DNA of 59,577 bases from an uncultured Rikenellaceae bacterium (GTDB lineage: Bacteria; Bacteroidota; Bacteroidia; Bacteroidales; VadinHA17), in contig CAZBQM010000005.1 in NCBI GenBank assembly GCA_964494045.1, positions 1-59,577 of the forward strand, given 5' to 3'. The notes beneath the pieces were generated by a model. It ran no database searches. It was not told the DNA's origin and worked only from the letters and a program-made list of their open reading frames with translations. This document shows positions 3,328-14,140 of the stretch, in pieces. Position 1 is the first letter of the stretch; each line of letters begins with the position of its first letter. The position numbers were made by a program, and so were the translations under genes.

Positions 3328-4467
3328 TTAATATATCCCTGTCCCCATCTGGAATATTGGCAAATACATAGATATTAGAATAATAGCTACTAATCCACCT
3401 ACAAATATTATAAGTATAGGTTCCAGAAGGTTGTTCATTGTTTTTATTTTTACATCAAGTTCTTCTGAATACTGATCGTAAAGTTGATTAAAGACAATAT
3501 CAAGTTTATTAACTTCTTCGGCTATCATTATCATGGAGATGATTTTTTTATCAAAAAAATCATGAGCATCCATTCCTTCAGATAAGGGAATACCTATAGA
3601 AAGCTTAGTTCTTATATCTCCCAGTGCATATTCAAGGGGATAAAAACCAATCATTTGCCTAATCAGGTTTATAGATTCCATTAATTGTACTTTTGAGCTT
3701 ATAAGCAGCTTCATCATTTGACAAAATCTGGTTTTAAAGGTAAGGCTGATTATATTCCCGGCCACAGGAATTTTTAATAGTATTCCAGACATGGCTTTTC
3801 TGTACCAGATTTTCTTTTTATTAATAATATGTATAATAATTAAAATAATAACCAATAACGAAAAGAACAGGAAATACTTTGGTAACGAATCTGATAGGAT
3901 AATTATTGATTTAGTCAAAGCAGGAAGGGTTCCGTTAAATCTCATAAAAACATCTTCAAACATTGGGACAACGTAATTAAGCATAAATAATAAGCTAATT
4001 ACTGTGGTAAATAAAACCAGGATTGGATAGGATAAAGCACTTCTGATTTGCATTTGCTGTATTATTTTTCTAGAATAGTAAGCAGTTAGCTCTTTTAATA
4101 CGGATGACAATGATCCTCCTTCTTCACCTATTCTTATTGAATAATAATCATAGACAGAAAAAAAATCGGATTTTTCCAATGCAGTTGATAAGGGGTTGCC
4201 ATTTACTATAGTACTTAGAATATTTTTTAAAATCTGTTTTTCATTTTTACGAGTGATTCCACATATTATTATTTCGAGAGCTTTTTTAATATCTACTCCA
4301 GAACATATCAAAACAGCTAACTCTGAGAAAAATCTGCTTTTAAACAGGCTTGTATTAACCAGGAAATGAAAAGATTTCGGCCTGTACACAATATTATTTT
4401 TAATGTAATTTGCTTTATTTGGAGCACTATTTATTTTTGATAGAATATGTGTCGTATTTATTTGCAT
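3328..4467 (-). CDS. gspF: type II secretion F / PilC inner-membrane platform protein
   Basis: Two T2SSF-like repeats (ELAVLICSGV..., IRIGEEGGSL; MKLLISSKV..., IMIAEEVNKL), ALSYP motif, LLEP..I..VGG.VA.IL.SMYLPIF terminus. Confidence 0.9.
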   Translation of the reverse strand: MQINTTHILSKINSAPNKANYIKNNIVYRPKSFHFLVNTSLFKSRFFSELAVLICSGVDIKKALEIIICGITRKNEKQILKNILSTIVNGNPLSTALEKSDFFSVYDYYSIRIGEEGGSLSSVLKELTAYYSRKIIQQMQIRSALSYPILVLFTTVISLLFMLNYVVPMFEDVFMRFNGTLPALTKSIIILSDSLPKYFLFFSLLVIILIIIHIINKKKIWYRKAMSGILLKIPVAGNIISLTFKTRFCQMMKLLISSKVQLMESINLIRQMIGFYPLEYALGDIRTKLSIGIPLSEGMDAHDFFDKKIISMIMIAEEVNKLDIVFNQLYDQYSEELDVKIKTMNNLLEPILIIFVGGLVAIILISMYLPIFQMGTGIY

Positions 4468-4952
4468 GAGGAGGGGTCATTAATTATTTCCTGACAAGTA
4501 TATGGTCTTTTAAAATTAAAATGATAATTAAGATTATTCTCTGAAATTGTAAAAGACATTTCTGAGATCGATCTGCTACTATCATTTAAATTGAGTATTT
4601 CAAGATTTTGACATTTAAGTCTAATAGTATCTTTATAGTTAACTTTTGAAATTATTATTCCGAAAGGTCTAAATGACATCTTAATTGTATCTTGTGGTGA
4701 ACAGATAAAATCAAACTCATTGGGATCCGTATTAAGAATCTTTGATGAATTCAGAAAGTTTTCATTTAAAACAGTATGTAGATTTAAAATTTCATTATTA
4801 CGGGATGACAACTTGTTTTCGGATGAAGCTATTGAAAGTATTGAAATAATTATCTTCACAGCAAAAGTCATTAATATCCCGGAAATAGTCATTGCTACTA
4901 CAACCTCAATGAGAGTAAATCCCGGAAATGTGTAATTCTTTTTCCCCTTCAT
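4458..4952 (-). CDS. minor pilin/pseudopilin (GspJ/PilW-like)
   Basis: Class III signal PG|FTLIEVVVAM followed by a hydrophobic helix. Confidence 0.8.
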   Translation of the reverse strand: MKGKKNYTFPGFTLIEVVVAMTISGILMTFAVKIIISILSIASSENKLSSRNNEILNLHTVLNENFLNSSKILNTDPNEFDFICSPQDTIKMSFRPFGIIISKVNYKDTIRLKCQNLEILNLNDSSRSISEMSFTISENNLNYHFNFKRPYTCQEIINDPSSCK

Positions 4953-5323
4953 TATTCACTCAGTTTTTTTGTATAATTGTTCTCCTTACGTATTGAAGAT
5001 ATTTCAAATAATTTAATACTATCCTGCGAAATGACAGTAATCCTCGTAATAAAGAGAAAAGGAATTGAATCATATTGTTCCTTGCAAAGAGACATTGTAA
5101 ATGGTGGCTGTATAATCTCCTGCTTTCCAATATTTAATGAATCCGATTGTTGAATTAAACTTTCAGCTTCCATATATGCATAAACTAAAAGTGTATTATT
5201 ATATGATCTTTTTATACTCGTTATTACAAGAAAGGATAGAGTAAATGCAGTAACAAGTAAAGTCATTGCAACAAGAGTTTCAATAAGAGTGCTGCCACAA
5301 AGTTTTTTTTTAATTATAACCAT
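4952..5323 (-). CDS. minor pilin/pseudopilin (GspI/PilV-like)
   Basis: KKKLCG|STLIETLVAM class III-like signal with Glu at +5. Confidence 0.7.
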   Translation of the reverse strand: MVIIKKKLCGSTLIETLVAMTLLVTAFTLSFLVITSIKRSYNNTLLVYAYMEAESLIQQSDSLNIGKQEIIQPPFTMSLCKEQYDSIPFLFITRITVISQDSIKLFEISSIRKENNYTKKLSE

Positions 5324-6573
5324 TTTATAATAGTTTTGTGTGGATTCTCCTTGAATAAATCTATATACCCAAAATGTTTTGAAAGTCCGTTGTAATCAAT
5401 TCTTGTATTAAGTAAATGGTTGTAATACCTTGCTTTTAAAGTTCCCAGATAGAATGATTGACAATACAATGTGCCTTCAATTTCACCTTTTAATTCTACC
5501 AATCCCGGACAATAAATCTGGCCAACAGCTCTAGCCCCATTCTCAAGTTTAATATATGATGTTAATCCTGCACTTTTGATTAATATTCCCCCTTTTACAT
5601 AGGAATTTTCATCAATGGAAATAATTAACGAATCTGCGGGATTATATCTACTCTTGTCAGATTGTAAAACACATAACTGAGATGGATAATATAAATTACA
5701 ATTCTCTTCAACTATAATAGATTGAATTGCAAATGCCTGAATCTCTCCCTTAAATCCTTTTTTAATCTTTATACTAGGAGCAATTAGTATTATATCAGTC
5801 ATTTGAGATGTTGAATCAAGTTCTATTCCCCTTGTAGACCAAAGTACAATATTGCCGGTGAGGTTATAATTAGCCAGTTTATTCATTGTATCATTGTAGA
5901 GAAATATTGTTTTACTAAAAAATGAATTAGAGTAAACTTTGTTATCTAATTCAAGAATGTTAACAATACTATCGGATTGATTTTCTATATCTTCAACATA
6001 ATCAATTGTATATTCGAAAAGATACTCATCGAGCTCAGGAAAAGTCTTTGGACTTTCTTTTATTATTCCTGAGACAAGTTTTTTGTGTATAAATTGCTGT
6101 CCTTCAATTGAAGCTGATCGTACAGTTTTTTCCGGCAGATAGCAAGTTCCCTTTAAGATAGTATTTCCACTAAGAGAGAGTATACTGCCATTATCCTGCA
6201 AAAACAGAGCAATTGGTTCTTGAAAATTAATATCGCTTGCAACAAGACATTGTTTTGAGAAAGATAAATTCTTCCAGTTTGCAGAAGATTTTATTACAAA
6301 ATAATTGCCCCATTTCTTTCGTGACATATAAACTCTATCTGAAGGACTATCAAATAGCGTGATTGTAATAGTATCCTCTTGTTTAAATATATCCTCTCCT
6401 GCCAGATATATGTTAATTGCAGAAATAACATTTCTTCTTATCCTATCCTGATTGAATTTATTTAAGAACAATCTATTATCATAATACGATAATAATAAAA
6501 CAAAACCAACAAAAGAGCCTGTAAGTACTATCACCACAAGAGAATAATATAAAATTCCACCCTTAAATTTCAT
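5314..6573 (-). CDS. large minor pilin-like protein (GspK/PilX-like)
   Basis: MKFKG|GILYYSLVV hydrophobic N-terminus lacking Glu+5; large beta-rich C-terminus; overlaps the pilin genes. Confidence 0.5.
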   Translation of the reverse strand: MKFKGGILYYSLVVIVLTGSFVGFVLLLSYYDNRLFLNKFNQDRIRRNVISAINIYLAGEDIFKQEDTITITLFDSPSDRVYMSRKKWGNYFVIKSSANWKNLSFSKQCLVASDINFQEPIALFLQDNGSILSLSGNTILKGTCYLPEKTVRSASIEGQQFIHKKLVSGIIKESPKTFPELDEYLFEYTIDYVEDIENQSDSIVNILELDNKVYSNSFFSKTIFLYNDTMNKLANYNLTGNIVLWSTRGIELDSTSQMTDIILIAPSIKIKKGFKGEIQAFAIQSIIVEENCNLYYPSQLCVLQSDKSRYNPADSLIISIDENSYVKGGILIKSAGLTSYIKLENGARAVGQIYCPGLVELKGEIEGTLYCQSFYLGTLKARYYNHLLNTRIDYNGLSKHFGYIDLFKENPHKTIIKWL

Positions 6574-13208: not shown

Positions 13209-13722
13209 AAACTAAGTGAGGTAATAGACTATCAGTTAGTCGATCTATATGATTGGAAAATATATCAATAGCAATAATTACTATTGCATAACTCGAAATA
13301 AAGCCGGTAAGAGGGATCAATTCACTACGTGTAATTTTATACGACCTGGCTATTGACCAAATAAGTAGTGATATTATTAAGCTGGATAAATAAAACGAGA
13401 CATAATTCATTGTTGAAAAGGCGAATGTACATGATATGAACATAGCAATATCACCGATCCCAATCGATTCATTGATAATAGACTTAAATTTTTGCCCTTT
13501 GAATAGAAGATAGCATAGCAATAAGCATAATTGTATCACTAATATTGTCATATTTATTACGCATATTTTTAAGTAAATGATGAAGTCTGTATACTTTAAA
13601 TATCCTTGTATCATCAAGAAACAAATAAGCAATGGGAACAGGAACCAATAGATTTCCCTATACATAAAATCCTGGTAAGCTATTACGCATAAGATACAGA
13701 TTATTACGATATTCAATAACAT
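13201..13722 (-). CDS. short A24-family prepilin peptidase
   Basis: Polytopic membrane protein with two Asp motifs, AYQDF and IGIGD (GxGD). Confidence 0.65.
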   Translation of the reverse strand: MLLNIVIICILCVIAYQDFMYREIYWFLFPLLICFLMIQGYLKYTDFIIYLKICVINMTILVIQLCLLLCYLLFKGQKFKSIINESIGIGDIAMFISCTFAFSTMNYVSFYLSSLIISLLIWSIARSYKITRSELIPLTGFISSYAIVIIAIDIFSNHIDRLTDSLLPHLVYG

Positions 13723-13726
13723 CAGC

Positions 13727-14140
13727 CTAGTCTTTTATAGTCTCTGATAAATCTTTGTTTTCATTAATTTCCCATTCATTAAATACTCCGTCATTATCAA
13801 AATCTACTAGAGATATAGCCTTTGCTTTAAATCCTGTATTTGATGCTTCAACGATTTCAATTATATAATTCGCTTTACCACCATCCGTGGATAACTTTTC
13901 TTGCTCAAAGCCAATCTCTGCCAAATTATCTGAATATGTCGAATGCAGATAGAAATAGGTCTTTTCAAGCATATGCACATGACTGAGTTGAAGTTGAGCT
14001 TCTGTACTTTTTGCTTTAGAAATAAGGGGCATAAGATTTGGAAGAGCCAGTAATACTAATATGCCCATGATAATCAGGACAACAAGCAACTCAGTCAAAG
14101 TGAATCCCGGTAAAAATCTTAAAGAGCTATTTTTTTTCAT
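13727..14140 (-). CDS. major pilin/pseudopilin (GspG/PilA/PilE-like)
   Basis: PG|FTLTELLVVLIIMGILVLLALP N-methylation motif; AKSTEAQ helix. Confidence 0.88.
   Translation of the reverse strand: MKKNSSLRFLPGFTLTELLVVLIIMGILVLLALPNLMPLISKAKSTEAQLQLSHVHMLEKTYFYLHSTYSDNLAEIGFEQEKLSTDGGKANYIIEIVEASNTGFKAKAISLVDFDNDGVFNEWEINENKDLSETIKD

Follow-up and report, generated by a model that had tools for sequence, protein, structure and literature searches.

The window (the whole stretch of 59,577 nucleotides that was analysed, from an uncultured Rikenellaceae bacterium) almost certainly encodes a complete and intact Bacteroidota-specific type IV filament (TFF) machine, T2SS-like and descended from T4P. 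The whole unit arrived, with high probability, by recent horizontal transfer on a foreign island, and its favoured mode of action is secretion. The statement that joins machine identity, acquisition on an island and secretion mode is, in our judgement, slightly on the probable side. What is new here is the occurrence of a known Bacteroidota machine on a mobile low-GC island in a genus otherwise without the system.

The gene cluster

The machine is encoded by 13 intact ORFs, all on the minus strand, from 14140 to 3328 of the window, in the following order:

13727..14140, minus: major prepilin or pseudopilin, 137 aa (leader MKKNSSLRFLPG, then mature start FTLTE)
13201..13722, minus: short A24-type prepilin peptidase, 173 aa (Peptidase_A24 E 1.7e-3, below cut-off)
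11757..13208, minus: assembly ATPase, GspE/PilB family, 483 aa (T2SSE 427 bits)
9805..11727, minus: outer-membrane secretin, 640 aa (Secretin 118 bits; Secretin_N and STN faint)
8585..9793, minus: GspL-type assembly-platform protein (PilM-PilN fusion), 402 aa (AF2 pLDDT 84.9)
8049..8582, minus: PilO/GspM-like bitopic protein, 177 aa (profile match; position after the GspL-like gene conserved)
7675..8046, minus: conserved small lipoprotein, 123 aa (lipobox IFSC)
7166..7642, minus: PilP/GspC-HR-like protein, 158 aa (N-terminal TM helix, YRxPF motif, C-terminal beta domain)
6635..7162, minus: embedded MORN_2-repeat accessory protein, 175 aa, with signal peptide (MORN_2 25.2 bits, below cut-off)
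5314..6573, minus: large putative tip minor pilin, GspK/ComZ type, 419 aa (AF2 model and Foldseek)
4952..5323, minus: minor prepilin (I or J type), 123 aa (site G/STLIE; N_methyl 17.1 bits, below cut-off)
4458..4952, minus: minor prepilin (I or J type), 164 aa (site G/FTLIE; N_methyl 29.1 and TIGR02532 28.9 bits)
3328..4467, minus: inner-membrane platform protein, GspF/PilC family, 379 aa (T2SSF 141.7 bits, two repeats)

An earlier note on this DNA had described 13 co-oriented genes with gaps of at most 61 nt in a Bacteroidales-like genome. The exact coordinates agree: the junctions measure, in gene order, +4, -8, +29, +11, +2, +2, +32, +3, +61, -10, -1 and -10 nt, and the nearest named GcvP relatives of the host are 'Bacteroidales bacterium' MAGs (89% and ~77% identity). 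The layout is not due to chance, since independent metagenome contigs (L052 and L077-L080) have all 13 genes in identical order and of almost the same size. The L077-L080 contigs match the cluster with 86.6% nucleotide identity over 10.8 kb, and most of the gene order is found again in Schleiferiaceae, Flavobacterium-like and other Bacteroidia genomes. Purifying selection acts on all 12 cluster genes compared with L080, where dN/dS ranges from 0.11 to 0.39.

As the earlier note had anticipated, only the ATPase, secretin, platform and pilin genes would be annotated automatically, the Pfam models T2SSE, Secretin, T2SSF and N_methyl being above their cut-offs. Peptidase_A24 (19.2 against 26.5 bits) and the MORN_2 match of the embedded gene (25.2 against 29.6 bits) fall below, and 5 of the 13 proteins gave no meaningful match in library model searches.

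Components of the machine

A genome motif scan detected only three canonical prepilin genes in the host, all inside the cluster. The major prepilin scores above the N_methyl cut-off (23.1 against 21.2 bits), has a TIGR02532 match as well as N-terminal matches to GspG and Myxococcus PilA far under their cut-offs, and shares 44–77% identity with the first-gene products of related loci. E. coli GspO, at 225 aa, exceeds the peptidase by about 50 aa and aligns with it across long gaps on the peptidase side; homologues of the peptidase measure 145–174 aa. In an alignment of 14 sequences, E. coli GspO among them, D18 and the G88-x-G90-D91 motif are invariant.

The label 'K-like' given earlier to the 419-aa pilin is supported by its AF2 model (pLDDT 91.3, pTM 0.87), in which a prepilin-like N-terminal helix (5-57) is combined with a small sheet, a large beta-solenoid (~120-400) and, at 413-418, a conserved C-terminal strand; Glu is absent at +5 of the protein. 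ComZ (6qvi; E 3.6e-3, probability 0.6–0.8) is the best Foldseek match, ahead of ice-binding solenoids. The ComZ match is weak, with 8–9% identity and TM 0.2–0.26; the pilin domain of ComZ is itself GspK-like (PMC6561018). The protein is matched by 2,929 cluster representatives at E <= 1e-3, and one homologue has a bactofilin Pfam match.

The match of the ATPase to the T2SSE model is almost full-length, and its scores with the PilB and GspE equivalog models are almost equal (483.4 and 482.9 bits, both under cut-offs). The ATPase gene is the sole T2SSE-family member in the host genome, in which no PilT/PilU retraction ATPase and no GspH/FimU-type pilin were found; such absences are provisional because the host genome is a 94%-complete MAG. 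The secretin has a signal peptide without a lipobox, gave no AMIN domain match, and is likewise under the cut-offs of both equivalog models (PilQ 137, GspD 124 bits). Its full-length similarity is limited to Persicobacter and Flavobacterium, and only the C-terminal 280 aa align with GspD/EtpD (23–27%). The platform protein reaches 200 bits with GspF against an equivalog cut-off of 424.

The reading of the 402-aa protein as PilMN is corroborated by structure, in the lack of any PDB match at the sequence level. Its model consists of a cytoplasmic actin-like domain, a TM and coiled-coil helix (222-302) and a periplasmic ferredoxin-like domain. The best Foldseek matches are the cytoplasmic domains of GspL (4pht_Y, E 1.3e-7), EpsL (1w97) and PulL (5tkw) together with PilM (5eoy and 2ych), and the C-terminal domain matches PilN (4bhq_B) and PilO. 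For the 177-aa protein, the PilO assignment is borne out by a 7-homologue profile that matches M. xanthus PilO (3jc8_Oa, E 5.5e-4). The 158-aa protein, previously called PilP-like, has an invariant P64-F65 within a consensus 'YRDPF' motif; the only PDB matches of its 12-homologue profile, OutC (6hcg_e) and the GspC HR domain (2lnv), agree with that label, though weakly (E 0.061 and 1.2).

The 123-aa lipoprotein is a candidate pilotin or secretin-associated protein. Homologues of 117–321 aa occupy the same position (E down to 5e-26), the longer ones with faint Ig-like, Y_Y_Y and fn3 matches, and its dN/dS is 0.20. The embedded MORN_2 gene (dN/dS 0.26) occupies the equivalent place in L052 (47% identity), L080 (89%) and L037; in L035 its counterpart lies upstream of the pilin. 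The tested hypothetical proteins thus show the expected folds, and to this extent the earlier claim that every structural slot is filled stands; since a GspH/FimU-type pilin is absent, 'every slot' is an overstatement.

The unit extends, beyond what the earlier note had described, to two neighbours of the 13 genes:

2806..3291, plus: second MORN_2 protein, 161 aa, with signal peptide (MORN_2 29.8 bits), convergent with the cluster
27..2381, minus: protein of the SpvB-N/RHS-repeat kind, 784 aa, with signal peptide, homologues of which lie beside related clusters

In L052-L054 the 161-aa MORN_2 gene has a 37%-identical counterpart, placed and oriented likewise. The 784-aa protein has no Pfam match of its own and is shorter than its homologues, which adjoin related clusters in L040, L043, L045, L050 and L052 and carry RHS_repeat, DUF6443 and a weak SpvB N-terminal match. 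This neighbourhood link was seen in 6 of about 20 loci examined, and by gene neighbourhood the protein is possibly a cargo or a tip partner.

Relationship to other filament systems

In the ATPase tree, the window ATPase belongs to a Bacteroidia-only clade (support 100/99) that groups neither with the proteobacterial GspE references (100/98) nor with the T4aP PilB references (94/87), in keeping with the separate derivation suggested in the earlier note. Support for placing the clade on the T4aP side of the tree is weak (68/97). Within the clade, the window ATPase is 52–53% identical to named Bacteroidota records (Schleiferiaceae, Flavobacterium, Persicobacter) and up to ~60% identical to sequences from other Bacteroidia genomes. 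Both the ATPase and the secretin are similar to Flavobacterium and Persicobacter plasmid records, and the gene order agrees with Flavobacterium, Cytophagales and Schleiferiaceae loci as well as with the published layouts Fjoh_0611-0622, CHU_3191-3202 and Odosp (PMC5553014). The Bacteroidia-only clade and the matching gene order identify the cluster as the Cytophaga-type system described in Wang 2017 and Denise 2019. The cluster adds a member to a known Bacteroidota T2SS-like kind and does not represent a new system. The 'T2SS' of Cytophaga and Flavobacterium has been placed phylogenetically with T4aP and not with the proteobacterial T2SS (PMC6668835).

Possible mode of action

The motifs and the conserved catalytic Asp residues suggest that the short A24 aspartic peptidase cleaves the three canonical prepilins. 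A single GspE/PilB-type ATPase on the GspF-type platform, held by the GspL-type, PilO/GspM-like and PilP/GspC-HR-like proteins, would assemble the 137-aa pilin into a filament beneath a tip complex made of the 419-aa GspK/ComZ-type beta-solenoid pilin and the two small minor pilins; folds and profiles were seen for these parts, from which we infer their interactions. The filament would work through the 640-aa secretin, perhaps aided by the conserved lipoprotein. It could act as a short endopilus and expel Sec-exported proteins from the periplasm through the secretin, the neighbouring RHS-type protein with its signal peptide being a candidate substrate.

We favour secretion over a surface or competence pilus, giving it about an even chance of being the actual mode of action. 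A short endopilus appears most likely for three reasons: the genome lacks a retraction ATPase, the platform is of a GspL-like type, and in Cytophaga the homologous system has an effect on secreted and outer-membrane enzymes, the mutants there having enzyme and secretion phenotypes and not motility phenotypes (PMC5553014).

It is possible, if rather unlikely, that the product of the machine is an extracellular pilus for adhesion or DNA uptake (competence), with the beta-solenoid tip pilin as receptor and motor-independent retraction. ComZ is a DNA-binding competence-pilus tip pilin for which a receptor role has been proposed in Thermus (PMC6561018), and the structural match of the 419-aa pilin, with ComZ first and ComZ-resembling ice-binding solenoids next, therefore points to a surface pilus instead. 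The weak ComP_DUS match of the major pilin (E 0.004), the weak T4aP-side position of the ATPase clade along with the published placement of the Cytophaga system, and the large PilK-homologue insertions described for filaments without a tip adhesin (PMC13533445) point the same way. The lack of PilT and PilU in the host genome, the fused GspL-type platform and the Cytophaga phenotypes argue against such a pilus, although the absence of PilT is compatible with a dynamic one, as motor-independent retraction is reported for other T4P (bioRxiv 10.1101/2021.02.10.430637). ComEC is present in the host genome, but it is near-universal (10 of 14 genomes in a control search) and hence uninformative. Naturally competent Riemerella has been reported without pilus homologues (PMC8459023), which indicates that competence in the phylum needs no such system.

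Acquisition on a low-GC island

The cluster lies on an island that the earlier note had not recognised, delimited as follows:

1..14645, no strand: arm of the low-GC genomic island in the window, running past the contig start (other arm C46:1-5250)
14601..14645, no strand: 45-nt direct repeat at the right island end (second copy at C46:5250-5206 of the host genome G000)

The island measures at least 20 kb, with GC 0.30 against 0.449 for the genome and GC3 of 0.20–0.33 against 0.49–0.55 for the host. The two repeat copies are identical at 43 of 45 positions (E 7e-14). In the nearest congener (G443) homology to the contig begins at 14648, another congener (G004) has the two island flanks about 530 bp apart, as an empty site, and none of 32 congeners carries the ATPase marker. 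The copy of the cluster with 86.6% nucleotide identity sits at a different site in a second host, whose neighbouring housekeeping genes are only ~71% identical.

We regard it as improbable that the island is a recent passenger, silent or decaying in its host and non-functional despite its intact appearance. The strongly foreign codon usage (the GC3 values above) would fit such a passenger, as would the absence of a Bacteroidota-type TAnnTTTG promoter motif in the 460 nt upstream, an island depth of 4–5 against 13–25 for the flank in two wastewater samples, split ATPase or secretin ORFs in some metagenome copies (L077, L078) and the shortened RHS-type gene. However, 13 of 13 ORFs are intact, 12 genes show the purifying selection described above relative to the 87% identical copy, the peptidase has kept its catalytic residues and the ATPase its near end-to-end T2SSE match; the split ORFs may be assembly errors, as the contigs have 3–4x coverage.

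An assembly or binning artefact, in which a foreign fragment of 30% GC was joined to a Bacteroidales contig of 45% GC, is very improbable: the GC step at ~14400 is sharp, the island is at a contig end and the host genus is otherwise without the system, but contigs from two unrelated studies run across the junction (run X1, assembled independently, covers 12275-18000 with no mismatch and at even depth, and a contig of study X3 covers 14207-14562), the boundary is a direct repeat whose partner copy ends the low-GC arm of C46, the outer flanks are adjacent in a congener, and an insertion of this kind is also present in a second host.

Comparison with known systems

The window system resembles T4aP (PilABCDMNOPQ, PilT) in its PilO- and PilN-like periplasmic domains and in an ATPase that scores 361 bits with PilB structures against 345 with GspE. 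It differs in lacking PilT/PilU, a PilY1-type adhesin, FimU/PilE-type pilins and detected AMIN domains in the secretin, in the fusion of PilM and PilN, and in a PilB equivalog score of 483 against a cut-off of 676. With the proteobacterial T2SS (Gsp/Xcp/Eps) it shares a GspL-type fused platform, a GspM/PilO-like partner, a GspC-HR-like protein, a K-type tip pilin that lacks Glu+5 and ends in a conserved strand, a candidate for completing the pilin sheet as in GspK, a small major pilin, a single operon and the lack of a retraction ATPase. In contrast to that system, every Gsp equivalog model is under cut-off in the window, the ATPase is outside the GspE clade, secretin similarity is confined to the C-terminal part, GspH is missing, the K-type pilin has a beta-solenoid instead of an alpha-helical insert, and the peptidase is shorter than GspO. 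Thermus thermophilus ComZ (PDB 6QVI; PMC6561018) likewise combines a pilin-like N-terminal part with a large ice-binding-protein-like beta-solenoid; it has no detectable sequence similarity to the 419-aa pilin, and the rest of the system differs from the Thermus apparatus.

The counterparts in C. hutchinsonii (CHU_3191-3202, compared by published layout) and F. johnsoniae (Fjoh_0611-0622; PMC5553014, PMC6668835) have the same G, O, E, D, F, PilM/N/O/P-like and minor pseudopilin genes, mostly annotated as hypothetical, the same core order G-O-E-D followed by platform genes, and library scores equally ambiguous between GspE and PilB. In the Flavobacterium layout F and the minor pilins are upstream of the pilin, whereas the window has both at the 3' end. 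The window cluster also departs from these systems in forming one co-oriented run of 13 genes, in its embedded MORN gene and the short 123-aa form of the lipoprotein, and in being a mobile island in a genus otherwise without the system.

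Composition of the gene cluster

The window is one entire contig (C5) of a 94%-complete MAG of 2.75 Mb. The earlier note had described in it a tightly spaced 13-gene cluster in a Bacteroidales-like genome, and both the 13 ORFs and their coordinates proved exact, with junctions ranging from a 10-nt overlap to a 61-nt gap. The host assignment likewise stands, as the closest named relatives of its GcvP come from "Bacteroidales bacterium" MAGs (89% and ~77% identity). The features discussed here are:

27–2381: gene for a 784-aa RHS-type protein
2689–2723: perfect 16-bp stem with a 3-nt loop
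14140..3328, minus strand: the 13-gene cluster, in the order pilin, peptidase, ATPase, secretin, GspL-like protein, PilO, lipoprotein, PilP-like protein, MORN protein, K-like protein, two small pilins, platform protein
14601–14645, minus strand: 45-nt repeat

A pilin, an A24 peptidase, a GspE/PilB ATPase, a secretin, a GspF platform protein, PilM/N/O/P-like proteins and minor pseudopilins are held in this single cluster, as expected of a Bacteroidota T2SS-like system. Automatic annotation would name few of them, which had been correctly anticipated. Among Pfam and NCBIfam models, T2SSE matches the ATPase (427 bits), T2SSF the platform protein (142 bits) and N_methyl two of the small prepilins, and the secretin is likewise recognised (118 bits), whereas the third small prepilin (17.1 against an N_methyl cut-off of 21.2 bits), the peptidase (19.2 against 26.5 bits) and the MORN protein (25.2 against 29.6 bits) stay below the family cut-offs and five cluster proteins have no meaningful match to these models. 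Scans for sigma-70 promoters (69 compared to 67.6 in shuffled sequences) and for terminators (7 compared to 4.6) performed no better than in the shuffles, the TAnnTTTG motif is absent upstream of the pilin gene, and none of the RNA runs looked through contained the window stretch.

Platform proteins, peptidase and pilins

The identity of the 402-aa protein was resolved by fold comparison only and not by sequence-profile searches: its family profile found nothing in the PDB, and an hhalign comparison with one E. coli GspL sequence gave no significant match (probability 0.1). A structure model built from 47 homologues (pLDDT 84.9) contains a cytoplasmic actin-like domain of ~220 aa, one long helix (222–302) and a periplasmic ferredoxin-like domain. 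Foldseek placed the cytoplasmic domains of GspL/EpsL/PulL at the top (best match GspL 4pht_Y, E = 1.3e-7, target TM 0.50) and PilM next, and the C-terminal domain resembles PilN and PilO. Judged by this domain build and these matches, the modelled protein is a GspL-type fusion of PilM and PilN, which upholds its label "PilMN" and makes the platform protein more exactly GspL-type. The profile of the 177-aa family matches M. xanthus PilO (E = 5.5e-4), in agreement with the name it had been given. The "PilP-like" label of the 158-aa protein holds in part, since the only PDB matches of its profile, OutC (E = 0.061) and the HR domain of GspC (E = 1.2), point in that direction and are both weak. The hypothetical genes were not found to lack the folds predicted for them.

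The peptidase slot is filled, by a short form of the enzyme. The catalytic aspartates are retained, with D18 and GxGD (residues 88–91) invariant in all 14 aligned sequences, while the protein has 173 aa compared to 225 aa in E. coli GspO and the alignment leaves long gaps opposite the latter. A local motif scan of the 94%-complete genome found three canonical prepilin genes, all inside the cluster, and the same genome has a single T2SSE-family ATPase; therefore there is no PilT and no H-type pilin. That one T2SSE-family match is the cluster ATPase and not a PilT/PilU retraction ATPase, and the H, I, J, K set of minor pseudopilins is incomplete, with only the K-type protein and the three canonical prepilins present in the genome. 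The claim that every structural slot is filled goes too far, as the H-type pilin is missing. Labels I and J for the two small pilins were dropped because N-terminal helices alone match anything.

The putative cleavage site of the 419-aa protein precedes ILYYS, so that there is no Glu at +5, and a missing Glu at this position is a mark of K-type tip pilins (PMC13533445). Its structure model, built from 31 homologues (pLDDT 91.3, pTM 0.87), combines pilin-like features, an N-terminal helix of 53 residues and a small sheet, with a long beta-solenoid and a conserved C-terminal strand. The top Foldseek match is weak (Thermus ComZ, 6QVI, E = 3.6e-3, TM 0.18–0.26), with ice-binding solenoids next; ComZ consists of a GspK-like pilin domain with an inserted solenoid resembling those ice-binding proteins (PMC6561018). 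The modelled architecture fits a ComZ-like protein, and because the match is weak we use this term for the architecture only and claim no family membership. The absence of Glu at +5 agrees with the original label "K-like", which we amend to ComZ/GspK-type with a solenoid. Against the PDB, the family profile gave marginal beta-helix matches only. In a library of 1.84 billion proteins the family comprises 2,929 cluster representatives at E ≤ 1e-3, the best 150 of which are nearly all 400–440 aa long, and its homologues carry no precomputed Pfam domain apart from a bactofilin match in one. The family of the solenoid tip pilin, some 2,900 sequence clusters in size, is unannotated.

Possible output of the machine

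These results show that the full set of parts is present for a pilin filament that polymerises under a K-type tip complex, beneath a secretin, with one ATPase driving the process. As its output we favour a T2SS-like endopilus, and secretion by this route would have about an even chance of being the correct reading. We favour it because the retraction ATPase is missing, the platform is GspL-type and the pilin is small, because Cytophaga mutants have secretion and enzyme phenotypes and lack motility phenotypes (PMC5553014), and because F. johnsoniae has secretin-like particles and no visible pili (PMC8455137). The rival reading, in which the solenoid pilin serves as the receptor of a surface or competence pilus, is possible and on balance unlikely; in its favour the genome encodes ComEC, although this gene carries little information.

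A recently acquired mobile island

The GC content of positions 1–14400 is 0.30 compared to 0.449 genome-wide, and the GC3 of the island genes is 0.20–0.33 compared to 0.49–0.55 in the flanking genes. The 45-nt repeat recurs at C46:5250–5206 on a second contig of the same genome (43 of 45 nt identical), exactly at the end of a second low-GC segment. The outer flanks of C5 and C46 are about 530 bp apart in the congener G004, and in the nearest congener, G443, homology to C5 starts at 14648. From the shared repeat, the neighbouring flanks and this boundary we therefore conclude that the island extends from C46:1–5250 through an unassembled gap to C5:1–14645, measuring at least 20 kb with direct repeats at both ends. 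The window copy of the repeat corresponds to the end of a gene resembling that of the 126-aa lipoprotein at C46:4849–5229, namely its final 7 codons (DKYHPGD*) plus 21 nt of 3' flank, and the repeat may have arisen when integration duplicated a gene end.

The same 13 genes also occur in a second host (86.6% nucleotide identity, 29% GC) at a different chromosomal site, beside the 42% GC housekeeping genes Fmt, RibBA and LptFG, whose identity to their counterparts in this genome is only about 71%. The cluster described in the earlier note is confirmed and its setting corrected, as it lies on a recently acquired mobile island, and these data are direct evidence for horizontal transfer of the complete machine among Bacteroidales lineages of digesters and wastewater. 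Sequencing depth on the flank exceeds that on the island three- to fivefold in two wastewater samples, which is what coexisting island-free strains would produce. Between both copies of the cluster, dN/dS is 0.11–0.39 in 12 of 12 genes compared, the lipoprotein and MORN genes included; every gene in this comparison is under purifying selection, and it is very improbable that the cluster is a silent passenger. Two ENA metagenome contigs of an 87% relative (L077 and L078) have pilin, ATPase, secretin or K-type genes split into shorter ORFs, which points either to genuine decay in some strains or to errors of assembly at their 3–4x coverage.

The island junction is not an artefact, because it is spanned by an independent assembly of run X1 (12275–18000) and, in the region 14207–14562, by a contig of an unrelated study; an assembly artefact can hardly be credited as an explanation of the locus.

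On the other island arm, C46:505–3099 (locus L055) codes for an M4 (thermolysin-type) metalloprotease of 864 aa that carries PKD domains together with a T9SS C-terminal sorting domain; with the island, the type IX secretion of the host therefore gains a substrate as well. Just outside the direct repeat, C46:5721–6824 encodes a 367-aa protein with a Fic-type motif (HPYKDGNGRLSR); it has a match in 3 of 30 congeners and is absent or divergent in the rest, the region being variable. In G443 a different low-GC insert (0.28–0.31; contig C55, L056:500–1500) lies directly upstream of the same PCMT gene, and this site looks like an integration hot spot. Two further regions of the genome have low GC content: C9:1–10500, which from its sequence looks like a glycosyltransferase-rich polysaccharide locus, and C15:15000–33000, which resembles a distinct element carrying an integrase-like gene of 405 aa, as suggested by N-terminal motifs.

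Neighbouring genes

Homologues of the 784-aa protein are found beside related clusters in five other loci and bear RHS repeats, DUF6443 and a weak SpvB-type N-terminus; the window copy is shorter than these and ends at the contig edge. The protein is tied to the machine by neighbourhood only. A more distant and fully syntenic locus (L052, 28–36% GC throughout) also has a convergent second MORN gene, after which come two RHS-repeat proteins (994 aa and 1,406 aa). The functional unit probably reaches 27–3291. The 16-bp stem is located where the second MORN gene and the RHS-type gene diverge, in the intergenic stretch that separates them.

The recurrent RHS-type neighbourhood suggests testable substrates. 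We speculate, with considerable doubt, that the Bacteroidota filament system could be a distinct machine class, mobile as a cassette, in which the solenoid tip pilin, the MORN proteins and the neighbouring signal-peptide SpvB-N/RHS-type proteins would form one functional unit whose filament serves to export RHS-family proteins or to present them at the cell surface. If true, this would be a delivery route for RHS-family proteins not yet described in Bacteroidota.

Comparison with known systems

The earlier note regarded the Bacteroidota systems as separate, T4aP-derived and poorly characterised, in agreement with Denise et al., who reported that the "so-called T2SS of Bacteroidetes" always clusters with type IVa pili (T4aP) and may be an independently arisen secretion system, and whose models of the type IV filament superfamily (TFF) left it unclassified (PMC6668835). 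It is among the least understood TFF branches. In the literature searched, the tags CHU_3195–3199 and Fjoh_0617/0618 are named only by one experimental study (with a corrigendum) and one review.

The ATPase is scored equally by the PilB and GspE equivalogs, both far under cut-off, and against the PDB it gives 361 bits for PilB and 345 bits for EpsE.

Equivalog scores of cluster proteins (bits; cut-off in brackets)
ATPase: GspE 482.9 (630.25); PilB 483.4 (675.65)
Secretin: GspD 124.1 (351.35); PilQ 136.7 (284.35)
Platform: GspF 200 (424)
Pilin: GspG 35.7 (88.85)

A maximum-likelihood tree of 52 ATPases included references from annotated records (GspE and HofB of E. coli; GspE of Yersinia, Ralstonia and A. 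baumannii; P. aeruginosa XcpR; N. gonorrhoeae PilF; A. baumannii PilB). The window ATPase falls in a 17-sequence Bacteroidia clade (support 100/99, stem length 0.46) that takes in Persicobacter and a Schleiferiaceae MAG. Separate clades unite the GspE references (100/98) and the T4aP references (94/87), and a weak split (68/97) puts the Bacteroidia clade on the T4aP side. The window ATPase is placed outside the GspE clade and apart from the T4aP references. A 557-aa ATPase of a Candidatus Saccharibacteria MAG (L005, contig CAYJAC010000001.1; 44% identity) is sister to the Bacteroidia clade (95/84) on a very long branch of 1.21, and this placement may reflect an old transfer or be an artefact.

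In tblastn searches, full-length similarity to the secretin is restricted to Persicobacter and Flavobacterium, and proteobacterial GspD/EtpD align with the last 280 residues only (23–27%). These searches and the model scores already show, at the level of sequence, a full-length secretin apparently common to Bacteroidota only.

Members of the Bacteroidia ATPase clade are present in 62 of the 400 Bacteroidia genomes sampled, in about 28 of 400 from the host's order (none above ~60% identity) and in 0 of 32 from its genus. The idea that the cluster is the missing DNA-uptake machine of Riemerella was dropped, as pilus homologues are reported absent from Riemerella (PMC8459023).

Overall, the observation made in the earlier note stands and its interpretation is supported with corrections, namely the GspL-type platform, the ComZ/GspK tip pilin, the short peptidase, the lack of an H-type pilin, the mobile island and a probably wider functional unit. 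The locus is a compact 13-gene version that gives a clean parts list of the Bacteroidota system, including a GspL-type fusion, a short peptidase, a ComZ/GspK-type solenoid tip pilin, a conserved lipoprotein and a MORN protein, and it makes the questions to be put to experiment in Flavobacterium or Cytophaga more precise.

The cluster shares a GspL-type fused platform protein with the canonical T2SS, from which it differs in that its GspE, GspD, GspF and GspG scores are below the equivalog cut-offs, its ATPase is outside the GspE clade and H is absent. It differs from the type IVa pilus in having no PilT/PilU, in the fusion of PilM and PilN, which are separate there, and in PilB and PilQ scores below the cut-offs. 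In contrast, its gene order agrees with the published layouts of F. johnsoniae, C. hutchinsonii and Odoribacter (Table 2 of PMC5553014) and is shared by several other Bacteroidia genomes, among them a Schleiferiaceae locus (L004) with 10 of the 13 genes in the same order. Through Flavobacterium and Cytophagales relatives we infer orthology to the experimentally studied CHU_3195, 3196, 3198 and 3199. The locus is a member of the known, poorly characterised Bacteroidota (Cytophaga/Flavobacterium-type) T2SS-like kind, and its category is unchanged.
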